Source of the DNA: Deltaproteobacteria bacterium
GTDB taxonomy: Bacteria > UBA10199 > JACPAL01 > JACOUP01
DNA length: 64,000 nucleotides
Assembly (NCBI GenBank): GCA_016177765.1
Contig: JACOUP010000008.1
Location: 836,864-900,863, forward strand
Reading direction: 5' to 3'
The notes under the pieces: generated by a model
The model's input: only the letters and a program-made list of their open reading frames with translations
Databases searched by the model: none
Told to the model about the DNA's origin: nothing
Made by a program: the position numbers and the translations under genes
Part shown: positions 1-64,000 of the stretch, one piece after another
How positions within the stretch are numbered: position 1 is the first letter of the stretch
Layout: each line of letters opens with the position of its first letter

Positions 1-69
1 AGCCAGGCTGGCTGAATTTCCGGGAAAAACGCATCCCCTCCCCAACGGTTTGGAGGGATTTCGCCCCTT

Positions 70-84
70 GGGTGGCACACCCTT
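70..84. repeat. 15-nt palindromic-core mini-repeat unit GGGTGGCACACCCTT, flanked by partial units (ccctt upstream, gg downstream)
   Basis: Direct reading. Same GGGTG-NNN-CACCC-TT architecture as at 1897, 2396, 17553 and 52968. Confidence 0.6.
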
Positions 85-507
85 GGAGGACCCCCCCTTT
101 CCCGACAGTTCCAGCGACTTCTTCTCTTTTTACTTGAACGGCTGGCTTCATGACCCCCCCTTTAAAAACACTCTATATTGTATGCTTAAGCATATACAAC
201 CACAAGATATAGTGTGTCAAGAAACCGGTTCCCTCTTGGCAGATCGGGCTCGCGGCAAAGCCGCAACTGGTCCATTTTTGCCTCAATTTTGGGAAAAATT
301 TTGGGGTCTTGTGTCAATTTTGTCTCGGTGGAAAAGGAATTTAGCTAGAAGGCCTGCCGCCTTATCCCGATGTCCACCCCGCTCTTTGATATTGACAAAC
401 CGATGATCTTGTCAAAGAAAGGAAGCAACCCCCGTTGCCAGGTGCCGATAATAGGCCCGTTCCTCAAGATAAATAGATATTTAAGGAGGATTTTCCGCGT
501 GAGATCA

Positions 508-1120: not shown

Positions 1121-2020
1121 CTATAAAAGAAGTTCTTCGAGGGGGATTTCTACCTTCTTCGCGGGGGTCAATGTAGGGCCCAACTTCTCCATATTGATAT
1201 CCCTTGAGTCGATCCCCAGGGAGAGGAGTTTCTCCAAAATCATGGGGAATAACGGGGGCCTTCGGCCATAGATGTCCGGATAGACTACCAGGGAATCATC
1301 CACCACACGGACAGGGTCGTAGATCACCTCCACAGGGACAGGCTTGGCCAGTCTGGTGACAAAGGTCTGTGTCCTGTTTCGCGAGTAGAGATCCAGGTAG
1401 GAGGCCTCTTTTTTTTCCGAGAAATGGGTTTGCAGGAACCAGGCGAGCTCGATCACATCCTTCTTTTTCATCCGGACACAGCCGTGGGAGGCGGCCTGCC
1501 CGATGAACTGCTCCTTGTTGGTGCCATGCAGGAGGAGCGATTCGCCGAGCGGCATCTTGGCCGGTCCGAGCGGGTTGTTTGGACCCGGCGGTGTCGGTTT
1601 TTCCCCGGCGGCCCAAGGGCTATCCGGGGGGAGCCACCAGGGGTTCCAGACAATGGTGTCAATTTCCCGACTGCCGGTAGGGGTTTTGTAACCGACGGTC
1701 CCGACGGAGATCGGGTAATCCTTGATCCCCCCCTCCCCGTCATCGAAATGAAGCCTTCCGGCAGGGATGTTGATCACAATCCTGACCGGAGGGGCAGCGT
1801 TGGGATCTTTTACCAAGAGGGGGGAGAAGAGTTGCTCCGAATCGAGGAGGTTCCACCCCTCCCGCTCCTCGAAAAGCCCCTGTTCATAGTAATTCGCCAA
1901 GGGTGGTTCACCCAAGGGTGGTTCACCCAAGACCCCTCCGGTAAAAAGCGGCCCCGGCAAGAAAAAGAGGGGGGCCAATAGGACGAGTCGTCCCAAATTA
2001 GTGAGTCTAATTATACCCAT
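1121..2020 (-). CDS. L,D-transpeptidase (YkuD domain)
   Basis: Catalytic motif HGT...SHGCVRM. N-terminal signal peptide. Carries the GEPPLGEPPL insertion encoded by the 15-nt repeat. Confidence 0.8.
   Translation of the reverse strand: MGIIRLTNLGRLVLLAPLFFLPGPLFTGGVLGEPPLGEPPLANYYEQGLFEEREGWNLLDSEQLFSPLLVKDPNAAPPVRIVINIPAGRLHFDDGEGGIKDYPISVGTVGYKTPTGSREIDTIVWNPWWLPPDSPWAAGEKPTPPGPNNPLGPAKMPLGESLLLHGTNKEQFIGQAASHGCVRMKKKDVIELAWFLQTHFSEKKEASYLDLYSRNRTQTFVTRLAKPVPVEVIYDPVRVVDDSLVVYPDIYGRRPPLFPMILEKLLSLGIDSRDINMEKLGPTLTPAKKVEIPLEELLL
1897..1931. repeat. Two tandem 15-nt units (GGGTGGTTCACCCAA, plus-strand reading) in-frame inside the L,D-transpeptidase gene
   Basis: Direct reading. Encodes GEPPLGEPPL just after the predicted signal peptide. 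Confidence 0.7.
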
Positions 2021-2314: not shown

Positions 2315-2685
2315 GGATGATGAGAAAACTCTTTTTTTGGGGCCTGTTTTTCCTTCTCTCTCGGGCGGCCTACGGTTTGCCTGTCGAAGAAAAAACACCC
2401 TTGGGTGAATCACCCTTTCGTGTCGTGATCTCCAGGATTTCCGATTATGGTCTTTTCAGGGAAATCCGGCAGAAGATCCGGCAGTCGGCGACCAATGTAA
2501 AAATGGTCCCGGTTTCTGAGACACCGCAGTTGATTGAATTTGAAGTGACTTCTACCGGAAAACCTGCTGATCTAGTGGCAACACTCCAGTCCAGCCTGGC
2601 CGACAGAGTTACCGTGGAGTTGAAAAATCTCCCTCGGGTGGATCACCCTTCGGGCATTCAGGAAATAACAATCAGCCCGAAGTAG
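2311..2685 (+). CDS. hypothetical secreted protein
   Basis: N-terminal signal peptide (MRMMRKLFFWGLFFLLSRAAYG). Contains one copy of the 15-nt repeat. Confidence 0.45.
   Translation: MRMMRKLFFWGLFFLLSRAAYGLPVEEKTPLGESPFRVVISRISDYGLFREIRQKIRQSATNVKMVPVSETPQLIEFEVTSTGKPADLVATLQSSLADRVTVELKNLPRVDHPSGIQEITISPK
2396..2417. repeat. 15-nt mini-repeat unit (exact GGGTGAATCACCCTT) with a partial flanking unit
   Basis: Direct reading. In-frame in the 2311..2685 ORF, encoding PLGESP. Confidence 0.65.
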
Positions 2686-15088: not shown

Positions 15089-16822
15089 ATGCTGAGTCTT
15101 CCGCTTCTGGCCGGGGCGGTTATCATTTTTCTTTTTGTCGGTTACACCTTGTACGGCCGGTTTGTCGCGCGCCAGTACGCCCTGAATGATGCTACACCGA
15201 CACCGGCCCACCTCCAGAATGACGGTGTTGATTTTGTACCGACAAAAAAGTTTTATCTTTTAGGGCAGCATTTTAGCGCCATTGCCGCCGCCGGACCGAT
15301 TGCCGGGCCGATCCTTGCCTGCCAGCAGTTTGGTTGGCTCCCCTGTCTGTTGTGGATCGTCATCGGCGTTGTTTTCATCGGGGCGGTCCACGATTTTTCG
15401 TCACTGGTGGTGAGTATCCGTCATGGAGGCCACTCCATCGCCGAGATTGTCAAGCAGAACATCGGCAAGAGGGCCTGGCTGGCGATGATGATTTTTTTAT
15501 GGATTGCCCTCATCTATGTCATTATCGCCTTCACCGACATCACCGCGGGCACCTTTGTCGGCCGGGTGGAGGAGTTGGAAGGGGTTCAGGTCGGTTTCGA
15601 AAGGGGAGGGGCGGTGGCGGCGGCCAGCACGATGTATCTTCTGCTGGCGATCCTCATGGGGGTGGTCCAGAAGAGGTGGAATCCCCCCCTCTGGCTCTTG
15701 ACGGTCGTCTTTGTCCCGGCCACCCTGTCGGTGGTCTGGTTTGGGACCCAGATTTCTACCTGGCTCCTCTTTTCCCAGCAGACCTGGGGACTGATCATCC
15801 TTGTCTATTGTTTTATTGCGTCTCTCCTTCCGGTCTGGATGCTCCTGCAACCGCGCGGCTATTTGGGTGGTTTCATCCTTTATATGGCGCTGATTCTAGG
15901 GGTGATCGGGATCTTCTTTGGCGGTTATGAGATCCAGCAGGAATCGTTCAAGACCTGGTCTGCCCCGGGGTTGACGGGATCTCTCTTTCCCTTTCTTTTT
16001 GTCACCATTGCCTGCGGGGCCTGCTCCGGTTTCCATGGACTCGTTTGTTCCGGAACAACCTCCAAGCAGATTGCCAGGGAATCGGACTGCAAACCGGTCG
16101 GTTATGGGGGGATGTTGCTTGAGGGGTTTGTTGCGGTGATCGCCCTGGCAACCATTATGATCATGGCGCCGGGGGATGTGAAAGGTTCTCCCGGTGCGAT
16201 TTATGGGGCCGGTCTCGGTCAGTTCCTGACTCTATTGATCGGTAAGGAAAATCTACTGTTTGCCATTACCTTCGGGGCGATGGCGTTCTCAACTTTTGTC
16301 TTCGACACACTGGATGTCACGACCCGTTTGGGGCGCTACATTCTGCAGGAGCTTTTCGGTCGAACCGGTCAGACCGGTCGGACTGACCGGTTAACGGGGG
16401 CACTGGCGACACTGGCGACGGTTGGGGTCCCGGCCCTCTTTATTATGAATGCCCAGGAGGGGGGATGGAAACTCTTCTGGATTCTTTTTGGAACTTCCAA
16501 CCAACTACTCGCCTCCCTGACCCTTCTGGCGATTACCGTCTGGCTCCACCGGGTCGGCAAGCGATACTGGTTCACCCTGATTCCGATGGTTTTTGTGATG
16601 ATCATCACCTTCTGGTCTCTCTTGAAACAGATCGATGTCGCCTACCAGCAGGTTCTGGTTCGTGAGGCAACGGCTGGGGTCCTCCCTATCATCAACGGGG
16701 TGGTGGCACTCCTCCTCTTGTTTTTGGCCCTCGGGGTGACGGTGGAATCGGTCCTTGTCTTCAGGCGCGTAAATTTTGCTGAAAATCTTTCGGTTGGTCG
16801 GTTTCCCCAACAGCCGCGGTAA
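15089..16822 (+). CDS. cstA: carbon starvation protein A
   Basis: CstA N-terminal signature (FVPTKKFYLLGQHFSAIAAAGPIAGPILA); polytopic membrane protein. Confidence 0.85.
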   Translation: MLSLPLLAGAVIIFLFVGYTLYGRFVARQYALNDATPTPAHLQNDGVDFVPTKKFYLLGQHFSAIAAAGPIAGPILACQQFGWLPCLLWIVIGVVFIGAVHDFSSLVVSIRHGGHSIAEIVKQNIGKRAWLAMMIFLWIALIYVIIAFTDITAGTFVGRVEELEGVQVGFERGGAVAAASTMYLLLAILMGVVQKRWNPPLWLLTVVFVPATLSVVWFGTQISTWLLFSQQTWGLIILVYCFIASLLPVWMLLQPRGYLGGFILYMALILGVIGIFFGGYEIQQESFKTWSAPGLTGSLFPFLFVTIACGACSGFHGLVCSGTTSKQIARESDCKPVGYGGMLLEGFVAVIALATIMIMAPGDVKGSPGAIYGAGLGQFLTLLIGKENLLFAITFGAMAFSTFVFDTLDVTTRLGRYILQELFGRTGQTGRTDRLTGALATLATVGVPALFIMNAQEGGWKLFWILFGTSNQLLASLTLLAITVWLHRVGKRYWFTLIPMVFVMIITFWSLLKQIDVAYQQVLVREATAGVLPIINGVVALLLLFLALGVTVESVLVFRRVNFAENLSVGRFPQQPR

Positions 16823-19800
16823 GATTCTGGATCTGTTTTAGGTTTTTTGGTGAAACCTTCCAGAAGAGGGGGAGGAATCGGTTCCATTTTTTTAAAATCC
16901 GTTCGGCATGAGGGCTTTGGGTGAATTCGAAATGTTTCAGGACAAGTTGGTGCAGTTTGTCGGCATCCTCGGTGTTTTCCAGGCGCGAGAGTTCAATCAG
17001 TTCCTGATTGTAACGGGATTCGAAACTCTTCAGCTCGTCAAAGAGGTAGACTTCCCCTCCGGTCATGCCGGCCCCGAAATTCTGGCCAACCTCCCCAAGA
17101 ACGACCACAACCCCACCCGTCATATATTCACAACCATGATCACCCACCCCCTCAACGACGGCCACGGCCCCGGAGTTTCTGACGCAGAAACGCTCCCCCG
17201 CCTGTCCCGAGGCGAAGAGGGAACCACCGGTTGCCCCGTAAAGGACGGTATTCCCCATAATCACGTTTTCGTGGGAGGCGTATCGGGCCTTCGGGTGCGG
17301 CCGGATCACAATCTCGCCGCCGGTCATCCCTTTGCCGACGTAGTCATTTGCCTGACCGATCAGGATCCACCGGAGACCGGGGACGGCAAAGGCCCCAAAG
17401 CTTTGACCGGCAGTTCCCTTAAAGGAACATTCCAGCAAAATGCCATCGGGCAGGCCTTTGTCTCCATATCGTTTAGCGACCTCTCCGGCAACGCGGGCCC
17501 CGACGGTCCGGTGGATATTACGGATCGGGTACGAGAGCTTGACGGAACGTCTGGGTGACACACCCTTGGGTGGATCACCCTTGGGTGAATCACCCTTGCC
17601 TTCAATGGCGGCCCGCCCATCCTGCAGGATCTTCTGATCGAGCGACGGTTCTATTGGGAAATTATTGCGGGGGGTATTTCTCTTTTTGGCCCTTTTCCCT
17701 TCAGGGTCGATATCGGTCAGGATTGGCGACAGATCGAGGTGCTTGATCTTGTCCTGTTCGACCCGTTTTTTTGGTTGGAGGAGATCGACCCGGCCGATAA
17801 CCTCATCCAGAGACCGAAAACCCAAAGAGGCGAGAATCTCGCGAACCTCGCCAGCCACACCGTTCATAAAATGGATAATCCGTTCCGGCGTACCGACATA
17901 TTTTTTTCGTAACTGTTCATCATGGGTGGTAACCCCCACGGGACAGGTGTTGAGGTGACACTGGCGGGCCATCACGCACCCCTCAGCGATCAACGGGGCG
18001 GTACCGAAACCGTATTCCTCGGCCCCCAGGAGGGCGGCCACAACGACATCCCGTCCGGTCTTCATCCCGCCATCGACACGGAGCAGTACCTTTCCACGCA
18101 GGTCATTCATCACGAGTGTTTGCTGGGCCTCGGCAAGCCCCAGTTCCCAGGCGGAACCGGCGTTTTTGATGGAAGAGGCGGGAGAGGCCCCGGTCCCCCC
18201 CTCATGTCCGGAAATCAGAATGACGTCGGCGTGGGCCTTGGCGACGCCAGCCGCAATGGTGCCGACCCCGTTTTCAGAGACCAGCTTGACCCCGATACGG
18301 GCCTCGGGACTAACCTGTTTGAGATCGTAGATCAACTGTTTCAAATCTTCGATCGAATAGATGTCATGGTGCGGTGGCGGGGAGATCAGCGTTACCCCCG
18401 GTTGGGCGTGCCGGACGCGGGCGATTTCATCGGAGACCTTGTGCCCGGGGAGTTGTCCCCCCTCGCCCGGTTTGGACCCCTGCGCCATCTTAATTTCGAG
18501 TTCTTTGGCATTGAGGAGGTATTCGGTCGTGACCCCAAAGCGGGCCGAGGCGACCTGTTTGATCGCGCTGTTTGCGGAATCTCCATTCGGCAACGGTTTG
18601 TAACGGGCCGGGTCTTCACCCCCTTCACCACTCCCGCTTTTGGCTCCAATCCGGTTCATCGCGATCGCCAGGTCGCGGTGGGCCTCGATCGAAAGGGCTC
18701 CATAGGAGATCGAAGAAGTGGTAAACCTCTTTCGGATCTCTTCGACCGGTTCCACCTCTTCTAAAGGAATCGGTTCTCTGATCTTAAATTCGAGGAGGTC
18801 ACGAAGGGTGGTAGGGGGTCTTTCATGGACCAGATTGGCGTATTTTTTATAATCCTCATAGACTCCGCTTTTGGCGGAGGCATGAATCGCCTTGACCACG
18901 TCAGGATTGAAGGCATGGTACTCCTCGCCCCTGCGAAAACGATAATAACCGCCGAGTGAAAGGACAATGTCAGAAGAAAAAGCCTGATTGTGCCAAGTCA
19001 AAGTGTCACGTGCGATCTCTTCCAGACCGATCCCTCCGACCCTGGAGGGGGTTCCAGTAAAGTATCGGTTTATAACCGATCGCTGTAAGCCGATCGCTTC
19101 AAAAATTTGGGCCGACCGGTAGGAGCTGATTGTAGAGATCCCCATCTTGGAGATGATTTTCAAAAGTCCTGTTTCCACCGCTTTTTGAAATCGCCGCTGG
19201 GCCGTTGCCAGGTCGAGATTGGGTAAAAACCCCCTTTCAATTTCATGGGTGAGTGTTTCATAGGCGAGGTACGGGTAGATTGCCGCCGTCCCGTAACCGA
19301 TCAGACAGCCAAAATGATGGATGTCACGGGCATCGCCGGTTTCAGTGACCAACGTTGCAATCATCCTTTGCCCTTCGCGGATCAGGTGATGATGAACCGC
19401 CGACACGGCGAGAAGCATCGGGATCGGGGCCCTTCGTTCATCAGCGTCACGATCTGAAATGATGAGAATCCTTTTTCCTTCTTCAATGGCGTGGGAGGCA
19501 GCGCCACAGAGGTCGAAGAGGGTTTCTTCCAACCCCTCCGGGCCGTCTGAAACAGGAAAGAGGGCCTGCAAGGTGACCGACTCAAACCCGGTCTCCTTTC
19601 GATTTTTTAATTCCTCGAACTGGTGGGGCAGAAGGATTGGGGAAGAAAGTTTCAGGCGCCGGGCATGTTCCGGTGTCTCGGCAAAAATATTTTTGCGCGG
19701 GGCGAGGTAGGTGTTGAGGCTCATCACCATCGCCTCGCGGATCGGATCGATTGCCGGGTTAGTCACTTGGGCAAAGAGTTGTTTGAAATAGCTGTAGAGC

Positions 19801-21326
19801 AGGCGCGGTCGACCGGAAAGGACCGCGAGAGGAGTGTCATCCCCCATAGAGAAGACCGGGTCCTTCGCCTCCATGGCCATCGCCCGGACCACCAATTGAA
19901 TCTCTTCTTCCGAGTAACCAAACATCTTCTGCCGGCGGGTCAGGGGATCGGCCGGTTCTTTTTTTGGGGGAGCTGAGGTCTCCTCGTTCGATTTGAGTAC
20001 GAGGAGATTTTCCTCAAGCCATTGACGGTATGGTTTGAAGGAAGAGAGCTGTTTTTTGATCTCTTCATTGGTGAGCAGTTTCCCCCTGACGGTATCCACG
20101 GCGATCATCTTTCCGGGTCCCAACCTTCCCTTCTTGATAATCCGGCGTTCATCCAGTTCAATCGTACCGACCTCGGAACCCATAATGATCAGATTGTCAT
20201 CGGTGACGATGTAGCGGGCCGGGCGGAGTCCATTTCGGTCAAGGAGGGCTCCGACGATCTGGCCGTCGGAGAAGGCGATGGCGGCAGGGCCGTCCCAGGC
20301 CTCAGTAAAGAGGGCGTGGTATTCATAAAAGGCCCTCAGGTCCGGATCCATCTCTGTCTTGTTTTCCCAGGCCTCGGGGATCAACATGGCTGCGGTATGG
20401 AGGATGTTGCGTCCCCCCATGATCAGTGTTTCCAGGGCATTGTCGAAAGAGGCGGAATCACTCCCCCTGGGCTGGATGATCGGCCGGAGTGTTTTTGGGG
20501 TCTTGGACCATTCAAAAACAGAGAGCTCCGGTTCACGGGCCTTCATCCAGTTTCGGTTTCCGGCGATGGTGTTAATCTCTCCATTATGGGCGCAGTACCG
20601 GAACGGTTGGGCCAGCGCCCAGGTCGGAAAGGTATTTGTCGAAAACCGCTGGTGGTAGAGGACAAGGGCGGTTTCGAAGTCAGGGTTTTTGAGGTCCAGA
20701 TAAAATTCGGCAAGCTGAGGGGCGATGCAAAGGGCCTTGTAGATGATGACGCGGGAAGAGAAAGAGGGGATGTAAAAATCGTCGATTGACAGTTCCAGAA
20801 CGTGGGCCTCAATCTCCTTGCGGATGGTGAAAAGGACCTGTTCAAAGCTGGCTTTGGGAACGGGACCTGAACGGCCGATCAGGATCTGTTCAATCGCCGG
20901 CTGGACTTTTGCCGCTTTTTCTCCAAGCGCCTCCGGGTTCGTCGGGACCGGTCGCCAACCAAAGAGGGTGAGTTGGTATTTTCCAACAATCTCCTCGATG
21001 ATTTGCCGGCACCTCTCACGGGTCAGGTCATTTCGGGGAAAAAAGATCATCCCGATTGCCAGATCTTCGTCATCCGGAGACTCGTAACCGAGACGTTTGA
21101 CTTCTCTCTTAAAAATCTTGGTCGGGATCTGGGCCAGGATTCCAGCGCCATCCCCCGTCTTGCCATCGGAAGAGACTGCCCCACGGTGGGTGAGATTAGT
21201 GACCGCCGTCAGCCCTTTTTCCAGGATGTCGTGGCTCTTGTACCCCAGGATGTTGGCGACAAACCCGGTCCCGCACGAATCATGCTGGGCGGCGGGATCG
21301 AAAAGGCCGGTAGGGGCGGGGATCAT
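16761..21326 (-). CDS. gltB: glutamate synthase large subunit
   Basis: N-terminal amidotransferase CGTGF, FMN/TIM-barrel and GXGXG domains. 1521 aa. Confidence 0.95.
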   Translation of the reverse strand: MIPAPTGLFDPAAQHDSCGTGFVANILGYKSHDILEKGLTAVTNLTHRGAVSSDGKTGDGAGILAQIPTKIFKREVKRLGYESPDDEDLAIGMIFFPRNDLTRERCRQIIEEIVGKYQLTLFGWRPVPTNPEALGEKAAKVQPAIEQILIGRSGPVPKASFEQVLFTIRKEIEAHVLELSIDDFYIPSFSSRVIIYKALCIAPQLAEFYLDLKNPDFETALVLYHQRFSTNTFPTWALAQPFRYCAHNGEINTIAGNRNWMKAREPELSVFEWSKTPKTLRPIIQPRGSDSASFDNALETLIMGGRNILHTAAMLIPEAWENKTEMDPDLRAFYEYHALFTEAWDGPAAIAFSDGQIVGALLDRNGLRPARYIVTDDNLIIMGSEVGTIELDERRIIKKGRLGPGKMIAVDTVRGKLLTNEEIKKQLSSFKPYRQWLEENLLVLKSNEETSAPPKKEPADPLTRRQKMFGYSEEEIQLVVRAMAMEAKDPVFSMGDDTPLAVLSGRPRLLYSYFKQLFAQVTNPAIDPIREAMVMSLNTYLAPRKNIFAETPEHARRLKLSSPILLPHQFEELKNRKETGFESVTLQALFPVSDGPEGLEETLFDLCGAASHAIEEGKRILIISDRDADERRAPIPMLLAVSAVHHHLIREGQRMIATLVTETGDARDIHHFGCLIGYGTAAIYPYLAYETLTHEIERGFLPNLDLATAQRRFQKAVETGLLKIISKMGISTISSYRSAQIFEAIGLQRSVINRYFTGTPSRVGGIGLEEIARDTLTWHNQAFSSDIVLSLGGYYRFRRGEEYHAFNPDVVKAIHASAKSGVYEDYKKYANLVHERPPTTLRDLLEFKIREPIPLEEVEPVEEIRKRFTTSSISYGALSIEAHRDLAIAMNRIGAKSGSGEGGEDPARYKPLPNGDSANSAIKQVASARFGVTTEYLLNAKELEIKMAQGSKPGEGGQLPGHKVSDEIARVRHAQPGVTLISPPPHHDIYSIEDLKQLIYDLKQVSPEARIGVKLVSENGVGTIAAGVAKAHADVILISGHEGGTGASPASSIKNAGSAWELGLAEAQQTLVMNDLRGKVLLRVDGGMKTGRDVVVAALLGAEEYGFGTAPLIAEGCVMARQCHLNTCPVGVTTHDEQLRKKYVGTPERIIHFMNGVAGEVREILASLGFRSLDEVIGRVDLLQPKKRVEQDKIKHLDLSPILTDIDPEGKRAKKRNTPRNNFPIEPSLDQKILQDGRAAIEGKGDSPKGDPPKGVSPRRSVKLSYPIRNIHRTVGARVAGEVAKRYGDKGLPDGILLECSFKGTAGQSFGAFAVPGLRWILIGQANDYVGKGMTGGEIVIRPHPKARYASHENVIMGNTVLYGATGGSLFASGQAGERFCVRNSGAVAVVEGVGDHGCEYMTGGVVVVLGEVGQNFGAGMTGGEVYLFDELKSFESRYNQELIELSRLENTEDADKLHQLVLKHFEFTQSPHAERILKKWNRFLPLFWKVSPKNLKQIQNLTAAVGETDQPKDFQQNLRA
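17553..17597. repeat. Three tandem 15-nt units (GGGTGACACACCCTT, GGGTGGATCACCCTT, GGGTGAATCACCCTT) in-frame inside gltB
   Basis: Direct reading. On the gltB strand they encode KGDSPKGDPPKGVS, placed ahead of the GXGXG domain. Confidence 0.75.
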
Positions 21327-30379: not shown

Positions 30380-30430
30380 AATCATTTGAACCTTTACAAT
30401 CGTCCAGTTATCGTCTATTATTCGTCTAAC

Positions 30431-31459
30431 ATGTTTCAACCTAAATTCAGCGTATCCGATTTATTATTAAATAATATCAAGAAGATAGCTATCTTCACAA
30501 CAGAACTAAACCGCCAATCTTTTTCTAAAACCGTGTTAGCCAGTTTTGAAAAAAAAGCCAATGTCCTCTCTACTCATACCTCCACCAGCATCGAAGGGAA
30601 TCCGTTACCGCTGACGGAAGTCAAAAAACTTTTGAAATCAAGACCTGAAAATATTCGGGATACGGAAAGAGAAATTCTCAATTACAACCGTATACTGGAA
30701 GAAATGAACGAAAAAATAAAACGGGGTTCCATCGCAATCGACATCCCCTTCATTTGTTGTGTTCAGCAAGAAATCACCACCGGTCTTATCGAAAAATTCC
30801 GGTGTGGGAAATTACGCACGGAACCAATTTTTGTCAATGATCCGCGAAGCGGAAAAACGGTTTATTGGTCTCCGGATCATCGAGATGTTCCAAAGATGAT
30901 GGATAACCTGATCCGGTTTGTAAAAGAAAAACGGGGTCACATTGAACCTCTGATCTTGGCCGGTATTTTTCACAAGGAGCTTGTCATCATTCATCCCTTT
31001 ATGGATGGGAACGGACGTACAGCACGTCTTGTAGCCAAGGCCCTGCTTGCCGACATGGGCCTCAATACATTCAATCTTTTTAGTTTCGAAAATTATTACA
31101 ACAAAAACGTTGCCGCCTATTTTCAAAATGTTGGGATATTGGGAAATTATTATGAACTGTCAGACACTATCGATTTTACGCAATGGCTGGAATATTTTAC
31201 CGGTGGTATTATCGATGAATTGTTGCGTGTCAAAAAAGAACTAGAGACGGAACTGGCATCGCCAGAGCTTGTGTTACAATCGCATCACAAAAAATTACTC
31301 GATTTCATCAAAAAGAACGACTTCATCACTGATCGCGATTATTCAAAATTGACCCAACGGGCCAAGGCCACACGGGCACTCGATTTTAAAAAATTGTTGG
31401 AGATGGATCTCATTAAGCGCTTCGGTAAAGGAAGGCTGACGCATTATAAAATGAAATAA
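30431..31459 (+). CDS. Fic family protein
   Basis: Canonical Fic motif HPFMDGNGRTARL. The gene and its flanks are markedly AT-rich relative to their neighbours. Confidence 0.85.
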   Translation: MFQPKFSVSDLLLNNIKKIAIFTTELNRQSFSKTVLASFEKKANVLSTHTSTSIEGNPLPLTEVKKLLKSRPENIRDTEREILNYNRILEEMNEKIKRGSIAIDIPFICCVQQEITTGLIEKFRCGKLRTEPIFVNDPRSGKTVYWSPDHRDVPKMMDNLIRFVKEKRGHIEPLILAGIFHKELVIIHPFMDGNGRTARLVAKALLADMGLNTFNLFSFENYYNKNVAAYFQNVGILGNYYELSDTIDFTQWLEYFTGGIIDELLRVKKELETELASPELVLQSHHKKLLDFIKKNDFITDRDYSKLTQRAKATRALDFKKLLEMDLIKRFGKGRLTHYKMK

Positions 31460-33340: not shown

Positions 33341-33775
33341 GTGCGAACCCGAACTGAACTCCGGCGTTATAAAACGTTTACCATTGAGTTCCATGGGGGC
33401 GTCTTTACCGGATTCCGGAACTACACCCACTACCTCGTCCGGCCTGACGAACCGATTCCCCTTCAATTGCTCCGCAAGACTCACGTCAACATAGGTCCAC
33501 CACGGCCAAAATGCCACCCTATTTCAGGCCAGCCTCTTATGTACGGCCAAACCCCCTTCGGGTTCAAGAACATCAATGGCACCCTTATAGAAGACCCCTT
33601 GGAGCAATTCATCCTCAAACAGATGCGGGAAATGCGCCAGAAGGGGTCTAGCCTCAACGAGATTGCCCGCTATTTAACGAATTCTGGGATCCCGACCAAG
33701 AATGGTGGACGGTGGCAGAGCAATACAGTGAATCAAATCTTGTCGCGTCTTAATTCTGGTTCACGATCTTTTTAA
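33341..33775 (+). pseudogene. remnant of a large serine recombinase (recombinase domain only; catalytic resolvase domain missing)
   Basis: PFGFKNINGTLIEDPLEQFILKQMREMRQKGSSLNEIARYLTNSGIPTKNGGRWQSNTVNQILS matches the serine-recombinase recombinase domain. Only 144 aa; no resolvase catalytic domain upstream. Confidence 0.6.
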
Positions 33776-45406: not shown

Positions 45407-45695
45407 CGGCGTTCGGCGCCGTTCTCATCCCACCAACAGAATTCAATAAAAAAGCCTCCACGAGGGAGGCTTTTTTTATTGATGCTCCGGGGGTGGGATT
45501 CGCCCTTCGCTAAAGACAGGCCAATCACGCTCAGGGCGTCAGCGCCTCACTTCCGGCGGCCGGAATTGGCCGCCTCATCCTCCCTCATCGGTCGGCGTTC
45601 GGCGCCGTTCTCATCCCACCAACAGAATTCAATAAAAAAGCCTCCACGAGGGAGGCTTTTTTATTGATGCTCCGGGGGTGGGATTCGAACCCACG
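45407..45695. repeat. Composite repeat copy B (U2-U1-U2), ending in a tRNA 3-prime-end-like fragment (T-arm GTGGG-TTCGAAT-CCCAC + acceptor half, minus-strand sense)
   Basis: U2 at 45407..45488, U1 at 45489..45592, U2 at 45593..45673, tRNA-like 3-prime fragment at ~45670..45694. No D or anticodon arm follows. Confidence 0.85.
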
Positions 45696-45797
45696 ACCAA
45701 GTGATTACAGGTTCCCCATCACTTTCATGATGGCCTGGACTATCTCTTTACCCTCTTTTAGAGGGTAGTGGGCGCTCGAGGGGAGATTATTCTTTCG

Positions 45798-46232
45798 TCA
45801 CTCCCTAGTCTCTGCACCTTCCTCCCACTTTTGAGGTTGGGAAGCTTGGCTCAGGATTGCCGTGTCCCTTAGCTGGGATTTAGGGTTCCCTGAGTTCACC
45901 CACTTTTCGACCACGGTCACCCGTGGAAGCTGCATTGAGGCATGGGTTTCACGGTGACAATTCGCACAGAGCATCACACATTTATCCAATTCCTTTTGGA
46001 CACGTTGCCAACTTCGCGAATGACCATACTGCGAAATGGCAAAATCCTTTTGGAGAGGATCTAAATGGTGAAACTCCAAGGCCTCCAGGCATTTCATGTA
46101 ACCGCAAAGGTTACATTGGCCGCCTTTGTAGTCGATTGCCATTTGACGGACTTTCTTTCTCCGTTTAGCAACCGCCTTAATATTCGCTTCTCGGCGGTCC
46201 TGATACCTTCTTGTCTCCCGTCTAGCCACCAT
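45798..46232 (-). CDS. HNH endonuclease family protein
   Basis: CNLCGY...HHLDP...CANCH HNH/zinc-finger motif. Confidence 0.75.
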   Translation of the reverse strand: MVARRETRRYQDRREANIKAVAKRRKKVRQMAIDYKGGQCNLCGYMKCLEALEFHHLDPLQKDFAISQYGHSRSWQRVQKELDKCVMLCANCHRETHASMQLPRVTVVEKWVNSGNPKSQLRDTAILSQASQPQKWEEGAETRE

Positions 46233-46418
46233 ACCTCCTTTCTACAGTCACCTACTCTGCCGCTGAGCTACCCCGGAAAAAATAGGATGCCGACCTGGTT
46301 TCCTAACAGATGTCCAGAGACGGTTCAAGTGGAGAATTTCAAAGCGTTTTTAGTGTTCCCTCTAGTCTTCCTACCCAAAAAGTGATAGATTGGGCAAAAT
46401 CTAAAAAAAGGGGGGGGT

Positions 46419-46991: not shown

Positions 46992-48641
46992 ATGGGGCTA
47001 ACACAAAGTGATGCTTTAGGCCTTAGGGATACGCTGACCAGTCTTTGGAATCGCGCCCGTCGGGAACAATATTCCCAAGTCCCAACGTCGGAGCAGATGA
47101 CTAGGGCCGAACAGGCATTGGATTGGCTCGCGGCCGGAGAGAGTGACAGGCTCGCCGAGGACGCAAAGGCCCAAGAGGCGTTGCGGGTGGTCCTCTCTTT
47201 TGGCGGGCGGTACCTCCATTTTTCGCGGGAGGCCAGCTTTGCCAACCTCCTTGCTGAGGCATGGACCGTTTTAAGGAGAATCGTTGAGGGAGGGAGTCCG
47301 CCGGCCGCTGGCAAGGCGGCGCCAACGCAACCTTTTAGTCCCTCTCTTTTTTCTGCAAGCCCCTTTCCCCCATTGCTCCGGGCAGACGGCTTTGAGAAGA
47401 CCTTTGAAGGGTCTCTCGATCAGGTTCGTCAGGCCTTGAGGGGATCACCCGAGGGGGGCAGGATTTTTACACCCCAGGAGGCCGACCTTGTCAGTCGGGA
47501 TATAGAAACCCTCCAGCGAATCATAACCGATGAAATAGTCCCGCGGTTTGGCATCTATCTCTCACCGAGATACAGCGTAGTCGTTCTTTCCAGACAGGGG
47601 GCGCCGTATGCCTGGATCATCCGGCACCGGCCGACAGGGCATGTGGTGACCAGCCGGTTTTCTGACCAACGGAGACCTTCTCTCATTTTTCCTTTTTCCC
47701 GGAAAGAGGTGATGCTCCGTTTTGACCGGCAAACCGACACCCTCTTTTTAGCCGGGAGAACGGCGGCTGGGAATCCATTCTCACTGGAGGGGCGTTTTGC
47801 CCGTTCCTCGGAGGGACGGTTTATTCGGGTTCAGGGCAGGCAGAGGGATGCTGACCCCTGGATCCGAAATTTTTTTGGCATTGATGAATGGCTGCAAGAA
47901 ATGTGCGGGGCTAAGGGGGATAATGAGGGTGACCGGGTCGATTATTTTCGTGCCGGGAACGACCGGATGCTCACCCGGTGGGACCCCTCGGGACTTTTTA
48001 AAGATGCCACCGTACAGAATTGGAAGGGAGGACTCTTTGGTTTAAGTCCGGTTATTGCCAGAGATGGACGTCGTTACCATTATGACCCGGGTAAGAGGCT
48101 TTACCCTCGATGGGCCGGCATTGTCAGGGGGCCCAACCAGCGACCGATCGTCTTTGAGCAGGTCCACGACCTGGGACTCAATGTTATTCGTTACGAGATC
48201 GCCCACCCCTACCTTGTTGCCCGTCTGGAGGTTCTGGGTGTTTCGGAGGTCGAGATCATCTTCCGTTTGGTCGAGGAGGATGGCGATTCCATGCAGGTTC
48301 GGGTCGATTTAATGGGAGAAGATGTGATTTTGGAACCGGAGGGAGGCCGAGGTCGGGGAGGCCCCGGGTTCGCCCCTGTTGGTCCTTCACCATCCATCGT
48401 GCCTGGCGATCCAAATACCCCTTTTCGAACGGAAGGACTTCGGACAGTATGGGAAGGGCTGACTCCTGGGGAGAAGGCACAATTTGGGAACCTGCCGGAA
48501 GGGTCGGGTGACACACCATTGTATGAAGCACTCTTGGTCGAGAGGGTCGGTTCAGAGGCGGTTCACGGCGGGGTCCTTTTAGAACGGGGGGCGGCGGAGA
48601 GGGCGGCCCTTGGGAGTCGCCGGATGGTTTTTGAACGATGA
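46992..48641 (+). CDS. hypothetical protein (549 aa, no recognisable domain)
   Basis: Long ORF with strong GC3 bias; Arg/Gly-rich; no motif recognised by eye. Confidence 0.5.
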   Translation: MGLTQSDALGLRDTLTSLWNRARREQYSQVPTSEQMTRAEQALDWLAAGESDRLAEDAKAQEALRVVLSFGGRYLHFSREASFANLLAEAWTVLRRIVEGGSPPAAGKAAPTQPFSPSLFSASPFPPLLRADGFEKTFEGSLDQVRQALRGSPEGGRIFTPQEADLVSRDIETLQRIITDEIVPRFGIYLSPRYSVVVLSRQGAPYAWIIRHRPTGHVVTSRFSDQRRPSLIFPFSRKEVMLRFDRQTDTLFLAGRTAAGNPFSLEGRFARSSEGRFIRVQGRQRDADPWIRNFFGIDEWLQEMCGAKGDNEGDRVDYFRAGNDRMLTRWDPSGLFKDATVQNWKGGLFGLSPVIARDGRRYHYDPGKRLYPRWAGIVRGPNQRPIVFEQVHDLGLNVIRYEIAHPYLVARLEVLGVSEVEIIFRLVEEDGDSMQVRVDLMGEDVILEPEGGRGRGGPGFAPVGPSPSIVPGDPNTPFRTEGLRTVWEGLTPGEKAQFGNLPEGSGDTPLYEALLVERVGSEAVHGGVLLERGAAERAALGSRRMVFER

Positions 48642-52908: not shown

Positions 52909-54492
52909 ATGAAACGTTGGTTTATCAATTTTTTCCTCCTCTTTTTCCTTCCTTCTTTGGTTTTTGCCTCACCCAAGGGTGATTCACCCAAGAGGGTCAT
53001 GGTTGTCGTCCTCGACCAGATGCGGCCGGATTATATTGAGACCTACAACCTGACGAACCTTAAAAAATTGCGAGACAATTCTCTCTCTTTCAAAAATGCC
53101 AACGTTGGCCATTTTCCCACGAATACCGTTATGAGCCATCCGGTGATCGGGACCGGGCTCTTTCCCAAGCATTACGGCTGGAGCGATGAACTGTATGAGG
53201 ACCGGGAGGGGTGGTTCGGTCCGAAGGGGGAGCGCTCGATTACCGCCGATTTTGGTCTGAAGCAGTTTCGAAAAATTTATCAAAAAAATCTCCCCCGTCC
53301 GACCGCGCTGTCTCTTTTGAAGGAAAAGTTGGGGGGGGAGGTGATTGCGATCGGTCAGAAAGATTACGCCGCGATCACGATGGGGGGATTGGATGCCGAC
53401 CGGGTCATTGTCCCTTCGGGTAAAATCAAGAAGGGAAAATGGAAGGGGTGGCGTCGGCCGGACGGACTGAACGTTCCATCCTATATTGCCAAACCGGTGG
53501 GGGGCCGGTTCTGGCTCGATTGCCGGGATGATTATGGGACGAAGGGGAGTCTCTACCCGTTGGATGGGAACCGCTATGTTCCGGGGGAGGATCCGGAGCA
53601 TTGGGGAGGGGATTTTTGGACGACCGATGTTGCCCTTGCCGTCATTGAAAAAAATCCGGAGTGGCGTGTCCTGTTGGTGACTCTGGGGGGGGTCGACAAG
53701 ATCGGTCATCTCTTTGGAGAGATGGATAACCCGGCGCAACAAAAGGCCACGGCCGATTTCCCCTACAATTTTCGTCGTGTTTTGAAAATTGCGGATGAAC
53801 AGGTGGGGCGTCTGGTGGCTGATCTGAAAAAAAGGGGGCTCTGGGAGAAGACCATTTTCATTGTGACGGCTGACCATGGCGGTCTTTCCTCCGCCAAACA
53901 TTTTTATGGCGAACGACAAAGGCCAGGACACGATGGCCACGACAATTTTTACTACGGTCCTTTTCAACGGAGTCGTGACTACAAGCCGTCTGTTTTAGCC
54001 CGGAAGTGGCTTGATGGCCGCGTCGAGAACGCCCTTCTTTCAACCGCCAACCGGATCTGGTTGAATGAAGAGGCCAAGAGGGATGTCCCGGCACAATGTC
54101 GTCATTTCAGTCAAATGCCGGCGGCTATCGCTGTTTATAGAAAAAACGGGGAAGGGGACTCTTACTTTTATGAACGTTGTTCTCCTTACCGTGGTCCCCA
54201 TCTCCCTCCTTTTTTGGATCCAGTCACCCTTCTGAATACCTCCGCCTCCGGGCAGGCGCCGGATCTTGTCGTTCAACTGGCGGACGATTCCGGTTATGCC
54301 CTCTTGGGGGATCATGGCGGTTTTCAGGAAAAGTCGATGCGGATCCCGTTTTTCCTCCATACACCGGGGATTCAACCGGCCATGAGTCATTGCCCGATCC
54401 GGTTGGTCGATCTCCTCCCCATCGTCATGACCCAAGTCGGGGTGAAGCCCCCTTCCTGGATGGATGGGAATACCGACTGCTTAAAACCATGA
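52909..54492 (+). CDS. alkaline phosphatase superfamily protein (type I phosphodiesterase/nucleotide pyrophosphatase-like)
   Basis: VLDQMRPDY near the N-terminus and a TADHGG metal-ligand motif. Signal peptide followed by the SPKGDSPK repeat insertion. Confidence 0.7.
   Translation: MKRWFINFFLLFFLPSLVFASPKGDSPKRVMVVVLDQMRPDYIETYNLTNLKKLRDNSLSFKNANVGHFPTNTVMSHPVIGTGLFPKHYGWSDELYEDREGWFGPKGERSITADFGLKQFRKIYQKNLPRPTALSLLKEKLGGEVIAIGQKDYAAITMGGLDADRVIVPSGKIKKGKWKGWRRPDGLNVPSYIAKPVGGRFWLDCRDDYGTKGSLYPLDGNRYVPGEDPEHWGGDFWTTDVALAVIEKNPEWRVLLVTLGGVDKIGHLFGEMDNPAQQKATADFPYNFRRVLKIADEQVGRLVADLKKRGLWEKTIFIVTADHGGLSSAKHFYGERQRPGHDGHDNFYYGPFQRSRDYKPSVLARKWLDGRVENALLSTANRIWLNEEAKRDVPAQCRHFSQMPAAIAVYRKNGEGDSYFYERCSPYRGPHLPPFLDPVTLLNTSASGQAPDLVVQLADDSGYALLGDHGGFQEKSMRIPFFLHTPGIQPAMSHCPIRLVDLLPIVMTQVGVKPPSWMDGNTDCLKP
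52968..52994. repeat. Two 15-nt mini-repeat units (reverse orientation; includes the exact reverse complement of GGGTGAATCACCCTT) in-frame in the alkaline-phosphatase-family gene
   Basis: Direct reading. Encodes SPKGDSPK immediately after the signal peptide. Confidence 0.7.
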
Positions 54493-63665: not shown

Positions 63666-64000
63666 GGGGGCGAACTGGCTTCGACGGAAGGAGTGACGCC
63701 TTACCCGGCATGCCGAGGTTGCTGGTTCCTCGTAAAAAACTGGCAAACAAAAGTAGACGCAACTCTACCTATGGCCGCTTAATTGCAGCCACGTCTCTCG
63801 AGTCTTCTCCCGCGGGGTTTGAGAGACGCCAACAGCGGGATCGCGAGTCTTGGTCGCCTCTTTTGAGACTCGTTAAACAATAAAGGGGCATGTCCCAGAA
63901 AATCCGGCCCGTGGGAGTTTCTGGGAGTCCTAAAACGCGGAACTAAGCATGTAGTTCGGGGAGGTTGATCCCTTTCGGACGCGGGTTCAATTCCCGCCGC
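63666..64000 (+). ncRNA. ssrA: tmRNA (ssrA), truncated at the window end
   Basis: 5-prime GGGGGCGAACTGGCTTCGACGG (tRNA-like acceptor/D). GCATGCCGAGG...CCTCGTAAAAAA pseudoknot region as in E. coli ssrA. Tag ORF ending ...LPMAA-TAA at 63780..63782. 3-prime CTAAGCATGTAG...GGACGCGGGTTCAATTCCCGCCGC T-arm. The last ~8 nt (CTCCACCA) lie beyond the window. Confidence 0.85.

Follow-up and report, generated by a model that had tools for sequence, protein, structure and literature searches.

A lineage-restricted 15-nt palindromic repeat inserted at permissive sites in an uncultivated deltaproteobacterium

How does one and the same 15-nt sequence come to lie, in frame, within several unrelated genes of a bacterium? 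This question is raised by a stretch of 64,000 nt (contig JACOUP010000008.1), hereafter called the window, from the metagenome-assembled genome (MAG) of an uncultivated groundwater 'Deltaproteobacteria bacterium'; proteins of the window are identical to MBI1909818, MBI1909858 and MBI1909799. The initial annotation of this DNA described a dispersed palindromic mini-repeat, GGGTG-NNN-CACCC-TT, lying in at least five open reading frames (ORFs). In this work we analyzed the repeat in 74 kb of the source genome (the window and its left flank), in orthologous genes and in genome and metagenome collections. We found that it forms a small family that is conserved as DNA, is precisely inserted, occupies permissive locations and is restricted to particular lineages, and we infer a way in which it may spread.

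Structure of the unit and its insertion into genes

Read in one orientation, the unit is GGGTG-NNN-CACCC-TT, that is, a 13-nt palindrome followed by TT, 15 nt in total. Nine exact matches to GGGTGNNNCACCC were found in the window (starts 70, 1901, 1916, 2403, 2636, 17553, 17568, 17583 and 52977). They are distributed over six loci, two units in one small secreted protein being counted separately, while dinucleotide-preserving shuffles of the window gave a mean of 0.05 and a maximum of 2 matches. When all palindromes of the 5-N3-5 type were counted in the window and 9.6 kb of its left flank, GGGTG/CACCC was the sole enriched one (nine copies); the runner-up was poly-T, with three. The ten arm positions and the TT are constant in all nine units and variation is found only in the 3-nt center, which is AAT in three units, AAC and GAT in two each, and ACA and GCA in the remaining two. 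The patterns named for counting this family are GGGTGNNNCACCC(TT) and GGGCGNNNCGCCC.

The repeat reported in the initial annotation is therefore real, but the list of its loci has to be corrected: a sixth locus (2636–2650) had been missed, and the region 52968–52994 holds one full unit instead of two. The three occurrences given for the exact 15-mer GGGTGAATCACCCTT (2403–2417, 17583–17597 and, as the reverse complement, 52975–52989) were all recovered. Two period-15 arrays were detected by the program TRF, one at 1897–1931 (2.3 copies, 100% match) and the other at 17552–17598 (3.1 copies). The units and their host genes are listed in Table 1.

Table 1. Repeat units, their host genes and the neighboring transposase gene. 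The insertion point in the inferred ancestral sequence is marked by ^; L046 coordinates refer to the locus left of the window.
Feature	Position	Strand	Remarks	Inferred ancestral site
Perfect unit GGGTGGCACACCCTT	70–84, within 55–99	+	Degenerate in-register units on both sides (55–69, 85–99)	
Two identical units, AAGGGTGGTTCACCC x2 (+ strand, 1899–1928)	1897–1931	-	Perfect period-15 run	
L,D-transpeptidase gene (YkuD domain), host of the two-unit array	1121–2020	-	Pfam; NCBI protein P0243 starts 8 codons later	
Unit GGGTGAATCACCCTT (2403–2417), with CACCCTT before it (2396–2402)	2396–2417	+		
Unit GGGTGGATCACCCTT	2636–2650	+	Second codon phase, R-V-D-H-P; 11 residues from the C-terminus of the small secreted protein	CCT^TCG, L-P-S-G; one T>C (would-be Trp -> Arg)
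Gene of a small secreted protein, host of two separate units	2320–2685	+	No Pfam hit, function unassigned	
Three tandem units, + strand loops ACA, GAT, AAT	17553–17597	-	Encode KGDSPKGDPPKGVSP in GltB	GGC AA^A CGT, E-G-K-R (shared with the relative at 70% identity); a single A>G later
Glutamate synthase large subunit gene gltB, host of the three-unit array	16761–21326	-		
Unit AAGGGTGATTCACCC	52975–52989	+	Encodes K-G-D-S-P right behind the signal peptide of the alkaline-phosphatase-family protein	CCC AA^G AGG, S-P-K-R-V; no extra change
Alkaline phosphatase / phosphodiesterase family gene, host of one unit	52909–54492	+		
IS200-type Y1 (HUH) transposase gene, 156 aa	L046 6212–6682, about 3 kb left of window position 1	-		
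Imperfect hairpin, direct copies, GCC(G/A)(C/G)C(G/A)GAATTTATT(C/T)GGTCGGC	L046 6215–6238 and 6819–6841		Flanks the Y1 gene	

With one mismatch allowed, the number of matches in the window rises from nine to 13 (3.1 expected). The four sites gained in this way are thus approximately at the chance level, and the family is sharply defined; a halo of decayed units is not visible in the window, except for in-register neighbors at 55–99 and 2388–2402. It should be mentioned that a one-mismatch unit, GGGTGACACACCATT (CACCA for CACCC), is located at 48506–48520 inside the ORF 46992–48641. It has the usual codon phase (G-D-T-P-L) and the ACA center found in the first gltB unit, and could be either a decaying copy or a chance match.

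The initial annotation had suggested aligning orthologs and looking for lineage-specific insertions. Such insertions, exact to the nucleotide, were found in gltB, the phosphatase gene and the gene of the small secreted protein. In an alignment of 40 GltB sequences, 15 extra residues (45 nt) are present in the window protein alone and missing from 39 of the 39 closest homologs. The sequences on both sides (..AIEGK before the insert and RSVKLSYPIRNIHR.. after it) are conserved, including in relatives at 70% and 67% identity. Solved GltB structures (PDB) also have no such segment, which sits between the Glu_synthase (FMN) domain (residues 804–1170) and the C-terminal GXGXG domain (1267–1454).

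In the phosphatase, orthologs with 52–54% identity read A-P-K-R-V, L-P-K-R-V or G-T-K-R-V where the window protein reads S-P-K-[G-D-S-P-K]-R-V; the insertion is exactly 15 nt long and is placed after an existing Ser-Pro-Lys. Since the orthologs have A/L-P-K-R-V, the 'partial' TCACCCAAG to the left of this unit is most simply read as the ancestral Ser-Pro-Lys codons. In the small secreted protein, all three homologs (P0363, P0364 and P0366) read ..KNL-----PSG.. and the window protein ..KNLPRVDHPSG.., an exact insertion of five residues (15 nt) at 2636–2650. At the other unit of this gene (2396–2417) the N-terminal region of the homologs is too variable to prove an insertion. The closest relatives of the L,D-transpeptidase are 46–49% identical and have divergent N-termini; in homologs with a comparable N-terminus the signal peptide is followed almost directly by an F/Y-x-E...W segment, so that a 10-residue insertion is only plausible, as judged from these sequences.

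At the three loci with exact insertions, reading the event as 13 nt plus a repeated TT/AA restores the orthologous ancestral sequence with no more than one substitution each. The left flank has 1–7 nt in common with the 3' end of the unit (..CCCTT) and the right flank often starts with GG(G); the targets therefore resemble the junction between two units. Flanks of the TT...TT (or AA...AA) type fit a 2-bp duplication in 10 of about 15 arrays, while the polarity of the center argues that the TT belongs to the unit: with the TT placed 3', the center reads AAT, never ATT. This polarity indicates that the copied entity is the 15-mer and not the palindrome alone. As each insertion regenerates its target, arrays with a period of 15 would result.

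Five of the six loci are located inside ORFs; the exception is the unit at 70, which probably belongs to a leader. According to the gene call and Pfam domains, the left end of the window cuts a class II ribonucleotide reductase gene directed leftwards, and this unit lies upstream of the gene, 35–50 nt from its likely start (Met-Arg-Phe-Ser-Arg-Lys-Phe, with GGAGG before it). The gene caller chose an upstream ATG; the first Pfam domain begins 30 residues past the internal Met (MRFSRKF). Because the conserved N-terminus starts at this internal Met with its GGAGG, the unit is probably non-coding and belongs to the 5' leader; otherwise it would encode a dubious N-terminal extension. In the same upstream region, at about 165–225, there are AT-rich palindromic boxes, ACACTCTATATTGTAT and CACAAGATATAGTGTG, which resemble NrdR boxes.

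The remaining units encode short additions to proteins. The array at 1897–1931 encodes LGEPPLGEPPL right behind the signal peptide of the L,D-transpeptidase, and the unit at 2396–2417 encodes ..TPLGESPF.. shortly after the signal peptide of the small secreted protein. Taken over the window, the units are positioned behind signal peptides, in an inter-domain linker, in a C-terminal tail and in a 5' leader, and all copies are at structurally permissive positions. The closest orthologs of GltB and of the phosphatase function without the insert. Four of the loci are found within 2.7 kb and are followed by long gaps.

Comparison of the encoded peptides with the DNA revealed which of the two is conserved. 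The in-phase reading, xxG GGT GAN NCA CCC, yields K/L-G-D/E-S/P-P: K-G-D-S-P is obtained on one strand and L-G-E-S/P-P on the other, and the second phase, used at 2636, yields R-V-D-H-P. All in-phase units (four independent loci) use the non-preferred codons GGT, TCA and CCC, which account in the window for 21% of Gly, 12% of Ser and 29% of Pro codons, respectively; the chance of GGT and CCC alone at four loci is (0.21 x 0.29)^4, or about 1e-5. Other G-x-x-P tetrapeptides of the window have mixed codons. The third-position bases of the arms never vary, and changes in the center swap D/E/V and S/P residues.

Thus, precise insertions, occurrence on two strands and in at least two codon phases, non-coding copies and invariant non-preferred codons together confirm that the conserved entity is the DNA, as claimed in the initial annotation, and this conclusion is much more secure than any concerning the mode of spread. 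The accompanying statement that the peptides differ by strand and frame holds for the strand, but the four peptides listed at that time share one codon phase, and the phase differs only when the missed locus at 2636 is included.

Distribution, copy number and genomic neighborhood

The unit sequences are identical in the NCBI MAG and in Logan assemblies of 5–7 different runs (among SRR12113383-431). In a full-text search of the literature with the core sequences only unrelated papers matched, and the unit sequence has not been described there. An Rfam scan of the window gave no match at any unit site; only tRNA, tmRNA and a group I intron were recognized.

The distribution of the unit was then analyzed in one genome per species (596 Gb) using a 1.5-unit pattern, CACCCTTGGGTGNNNCACCCTT. 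Eight matches were obtained, and we estimate that chance alone would give about as many. One of the matched genomes, E14_metabat.bin.352, contained the pattern on two contigs, each of which carries one further, independently located unit, so that 14.7 kb of this genome contain two additional sites that were unascertained. The GyrB of this genome has 82% amino acid identity with that of GCA_016180845.1, itself a relative of the window organism. In E14_metabat.bin.352 the 50 nt that separate the stop codon of dnaN from the gyrB ATG contain two units, which are missing from the spacer of the relative. The 3' end of this array (L013 1692–1740) supplies the AAGGAG that serves as the ribosome-binding site of gyrB, 6 nt before the ATG, and the insertion may have rebuilt or replaced the translation signal of this gene.

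A scan of metagenomes gave 18 loci matching the pattern. The very same 15-mers were found at L019/L028, L021, L023 and L032 (GC content 0.44–0.47), in a CheA-like linker, in the tail of a peptide deformylase and at other permissive positions; 15-mers with the loops AAT and AAC recur in E14_metabat.bin.352 and in unrelated-looking metagenome contigs. Other metagenome matches were rejected as unrelated high-GC protein repeats of the K-G-D-x-P type or as chance. A scan of viral contigs with the 1.5-unit pattern gave no matches, and there is no sign of a phage origin. At L046 5816–5830, about 3.8 kb left of the window, we found an intergenic variant, GGGCGAATCGCCCTT, which keeps the palindrome because its T>C and A>G changes are complementary. 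The identical variant is also present within arrays at L019/L028 and L021.

Importantly, no copies were found in 91 kb from four more distantly related MAGs (GltB at 67–70% or phosphatase at 52–54% identity), where approximately 8–9 loci would be expected at the density of the window. The unit family is therefore restricted to particular lineages.

The initial annotation also proposed a phase-type variation of copy number, which was not observed in gltB, the phosphatase gene or the gene of the small secreted protein. Variants of the host proteins were sought in a collection of 15 billion proteins grouped into clusters at 90% identity. The GltB and phosphatase clusters contain one sequence each, on 5 and 7 contigs, with no length variants, and the cluster of the small protein contains two records (2 contigs) differing only in the called start codon.

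For the array in the L,D-transpeptidase gene the evidence comes from assembly breaks. In at least four runs the Logan contigs (k=31) are interrupted within this array, stopping at 1925 or starting at 1902, and a complete gene is not present in those assemblies. A perfect 35-nt run with a period of 15 should not by itself break a k=31 graph. In a simulation, a coexisting version with at least three units (an allele or another locus) produced breaks at 1926 and 1902, and a one-unit allele at 1916 and 1912. The observed breaks match the prediction for at least three units on the right and are 1 nt off on the left, which is no more than suggestive of a longer array coexisting with the two-unit array. 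A difference in copy number was noticed in an unrelated 'Pseudomonadota' MAG. One of its loci has three copies of a similar unit, GGGTGAAGCACCCTT, in two assemblies (L008 685–727, L016 562–604) and five in a third (L020 5209–5281); at a distance of 1 kb, the tail of a protein (..PPKGVPPKG..) holds another single unit.

Only one candidate mobilizing enzyme was seen in the neighborhood of the units, the IS200-type Y1 transposase (Table 1), whose gene is located within the local group of copies. Of the seven loci in 74 kb, the variant included, five are within 6 kb of this gene (0.4–5.6 kb; binomial probability approximately 0.002, post hoc). The protein resembles the TnpA proteins of ISDra2 and IS608. 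Besides this gene and a serine-recombinase fragment, no other transposases were found in the 74 kb. The fragment is a short ORF at 33341–33775 with a partial match to the serine 'Recombinase' Pfam profile (positions 5–50 of 102); it adjoins a Fic-domain gene (30386–31459) and is probably a gene fragment. Pfam annotation of the region 27–46 kb revealed no transposase and only this ORF.

Two further features of the window should be mentioned in their own right. A group I intron (Rfam RF00028, 86.8 bits, 45716–46007) was found on the minus strand in the region 45655–46290, where it appears to split a tRNA gene: a sequence like a tRNA 5' half, CCGGGGTAGCTCAGCGG..., is located at about 46240–46275, and a 3' half with T-arm and acceptor, GGTCGTGGGTTCGAATCCCACCCCCGGAGCA, at about 45655–45700. 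The split tRNA was not called by ARAGORN in this region. An ORF at 45798–46232, between and overlapping these elements, has an HNH-like Cys/His pattern and no Pfam hit. The second feature is a tmRNA gene (Rfam RF00023, 173.5 bits) at 63666–64000, which is cut by the end of the window; Logan contigs end there too.

Possible way of spread and alternative explanations

We give an even chance to the explanation that the unit is an insertional repeat acting at the level of DNA, either selfish or neutral, which selection has confined to permissive sites. According to it, a lineage-restricted small repeat, GGGTG-RAY-CACCC followed by TT (15 nt), would be copied to unlinked chromosomal sites. Each event would add exactly 15 nt at a TT (or AA), usually in a CCTT^GG-like context, and would recreate the target at the 3' end of the insert; further units could be added alongside by re-insertion or slippage, giving arrays with a period of 15. 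Intragenic copies would not be automatically lethal, because 15 is a multiple of three and, on either strand, two phases out of three contain no stop codon. Purifying selection would leave only copies at permissive sites (mature exported N-termini, a linker, a C-terminal tail, leaders or spacers), and the surviving copies would add a short flexible pentapeptide or nothing.

As to the driving force, our preferred suggestion is a trans-acting enzyme that would recognize a single-stranded hairpin and insert it in a strand-polar manner 3' of a short target. A single-stranded hairpin and strand-specific insertion 3' of a short target constitute the logic of IS200/IS605 and REP/RAYT systems (PMC3116915). 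As DNA, a single unit folds into a 5-bp stem with a 3-nt loop (-3.9 kcal/mol) and the three-unit array folds at -15.5 kcal/mol, odd-numbered arrays forming a long nested hairpin. Almost the same likelihood is given to template switching or annealing that needs no enzyme and starts from a short stretch of homology to the inter-unit junction; in this case the long nested hairpin could stall replication.

In its most specific form, the proposal states that the 13-nt palindrome and TT are themselves a mobile unit, moved as a single-stranded hairpin by a trans-acting HUH/Y1-type or still unknown enzyme, with strand-specific insertion 3' of a regenerated TT/CTT target. We regard this as possible, though doubtful. 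If true, the unit would be the smallest transposable DNA described, one that builds in-frame arrays and remodels linkers and N-termini of essential proteins across several uncultivated lineages.

A number of observations weigh against a mobile insertional repeat. The nearby Y1 enzyme is a candidate only: the protein scores 79 bits with the IS200 model and 25 bits with the RAYT model (cut-off 80), and its gene is flanked by its own unrelated hairpin, GCCGCCGAATTTATTCGGTCGGC, with no matches elsewhere in the window at up to three mismatches. A tblastn search with the transposase against all fetched loci found its own locus only, and none at the loci of E14_metabat.bin.352. With its 15 nt, the unit is far smaller than any element known to be transposed. 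Dispersal over the whole genome is an extrapolation from 74 kb, and no polymorphism between empty and filled sites was seen within the species. In a covariation test (25 units, 8 loci) a single type of compensated pair was found, and 44 of 500 shuffles scored equally high, a result too weak for postulating a hairpin under selection. Alternatively, arms that never vary could reflect selection for a binding site. The hairpin flanking the Y1 gene was considered as a second repeat family and rejected, since the window contains no further copies of it; it has no relation to the unit.

Selection for a binding site leads to the first alternative, that the unit is a functional recognition site, i.e., a dyad-symmetric site of a dimeric protein (nucleoid, regulatory, restriction-modification or uptake-related), kept by selection and tolerated within ORFs. 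Two perfectly conserved 5-nt arms with a free 3-nt spacer are the usual signature of dimeric DNA-binding sites; the variant GGGCG...CGCCC keeps the dyad by a double change at three loci, and two copies lie in 5' leaders or spacers beside ribosome-binding sites. However, this explanation leaves unaccounted for the exact 15-nt insertions in the GltB linker and behind signal peptides, the head-to-tail arrays with a fixed TT and the local clustering of four loci in 2.7 kb. Known uptake sequences occur about once per kb, and six loci per 64 kb are far below this density. Moreover, relatives with the same genes carry no copies, and the covariation test is not significant. We therefore consider a recognition site unlikely.

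Second, the units might be excision footprints of an unseen cut-and-paste transposon with the ends GGGTG...CACCC, in which case TT/AA would be the duplicated target and the 3-nt center a repair junction. The arrangement TT-[5 nt]-[variable 3 nt]-[5 nt inverted]-TT does look like two remnants of terminal inverted repeats within a 2-bp duplication; variability is confined to the center, and the ancestral sites have TT/AA exactly at the insertion point. Nevertheless, the sequence of the center is far from random: in several organisms AAT prevails, and its orientation with respect to the TT is always the same. Tandem arrays would need repeated insertion and excision at one spot, no transposon with such termini was found in 74 kb, and footprint-leaving excision is unusual in bacteria. 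This origin appears quite improbable.

Third, a peptide module might be under selection, a flexible linker or tag of the form G-[DE]-[SP]-P-[KL], the identity of the DNA being a by-product of recent duplication. Four loci indeed share one codon phase and encode similar hydrophilic pentapeptides rich in Pro and Gly, three hosts are exported and carry the motif right behind the signal peptide, and K-G-D-x-P repeats with different codons exist in unrelated high-GC contigs (L025, L030). Yet the same DNA encodes R-V-D-H-P at 2636 and is non-coding in E14_metabat.bin.352 and probably at 70; these out-of-phase and non-coding copies largely refute the idea. In addition, GltB is cytoplasmic and its closest orthologs function without the insert, and the arms are invariant at synonymous positions and in non-preferred codons while it is the residues encoded by the center that change. 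A selected peptide is thus very improbable.

Finally, an assembly or sequencing artifact, or an independent chance tandem duplication at each locus, is barely credible: although all data come from metagenome assemblies and contigs break at one array, the same sequences recur in the MAG and in independent Logan assemblies of 5–7 runs, reading frames are kept in conserved genes, the chance expectation is 0.05, and independent duplications cannot give the same 15-mer at unlinked loci and in another species.

Comparison with known repeats and significance

The initial annotation labeled the unit as an intragenic REP- or minisatellite-like element, and a resemblance to these groups is supported. 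REP and REPIN sequences are short hairpin-forming palindromic repeats that are dispersed, lineage-specific and sometimes tandem, and occur near a Y1-family transposase gene (PMC3116915). Like them, the unit is repetitive, palindromic, hairpin-forming, sometimes tandem and clustered near a Y1-family gene. Unlike REPs, which are extragenic and about 20–40 nt long, it has a length of 15 nt and is mostly intragenic. REPINs are inverted doublets beside a single-copy RAYT, whereas our units are solitary or form direct head-to-tail arrays with a period of 15, and the nearby Y1 gene, unlike a RAYT, scores as an ordinary IS200 and is flanked by a different hairpin. The period-15 in-frame arrays could, as in contingency-locus tandem repeats and minisatellites, alter linker length by slippage; in contrast to locus-specific intragenic minisatellites, which are of local origin, the identical unit is found at unlinked loci and in another species.

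Along with REP/REPIN sequences, Rickettsia palindromic elements are the repeats that the unit resembles most in behavior. These elements enter unrelated housekeeping genes without disturbing the reading frame, at sites where protein folding tolerates them (PMC10969869). The unit is similarly inserted in frame in GltB, the phosphatase and the small protein. However, these elements are about 100–150 bp long, encode a conserved peptide specific to each family and are found in Rickettsia only. The unit is ten times shorter, gives KGDSP, LGEPP or RVDHP depending on strand and phase, and is also present outside genes. MITEs are non-autonomous elements with inverted-repeat symmetry that sometimes form in-frame fusions (PMC10969869). 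The unit shares with them the inverted-repeat symmetry and a possible 2-bp target duplication. It differs in size, as MITEs are about 50–500 bp long with terminal inverted repeats from a parent insertion sequence and the unit is shorter than a typical single terminal repeat; no insertion sequence with ends matching the unit was found in the 74 kb.

The small dispersed repeats (SDRs) of heterocystous cyanobacteria are 'very small mobile repeated elements' of about 21–27 nt, mainly intergenic. Like SDRs, the unit is a very short dispersed repeat whose presence or absence in conserved orthologous sequence points to mobility with no obvious encoded enzyme; SDRs are longer, cyanobacterial and mainly intergenic, and are probably unrelated to the unit in sequence. 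Positive evidence was not obtained for the uptake-type sequence considered in the initial annotation: DNA uptake sequences have a very high and fairly even density, whereas in the 74 kb covered here the units are clustered and often tandem, with four of the six loci of the 64-kb window confined to 2.7 kb. In protein pentapeptide repeats or linker motifs the DNA varies synonymously, whereas here the arms are invariant at third positions and the encoded residues vary. We therefore file the unit as a dispersed palindromic insertional repeat that fails the defining features of REP/REPIN sequences, Rickettsia palindromic elements and MITEs.

In practice, the unit has to be taken into account when MAGs are assembled and annotated, since contigs break at one array, and when lineage-specific 'low-complexity' inserts in alignments of orthologs are interpreted. 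If confirmed genome-wide, it would bring the smallest known size of a dispersed insertional repeat in bacteria down to 15 nt and would represent a frame-neutral selfish element able, through its length and stop-free phases, to settle in conserved housekeeping genes such as gltB. It would then be a natural analog of laboratory pentapeptide-scanning mutagenesis, an element that marks permissive protein sites and creates new linker peptides. Consisting of one hairpin and a dinucleotide, it may serve as a simple substrate for studying how REP-like sequences are copied.

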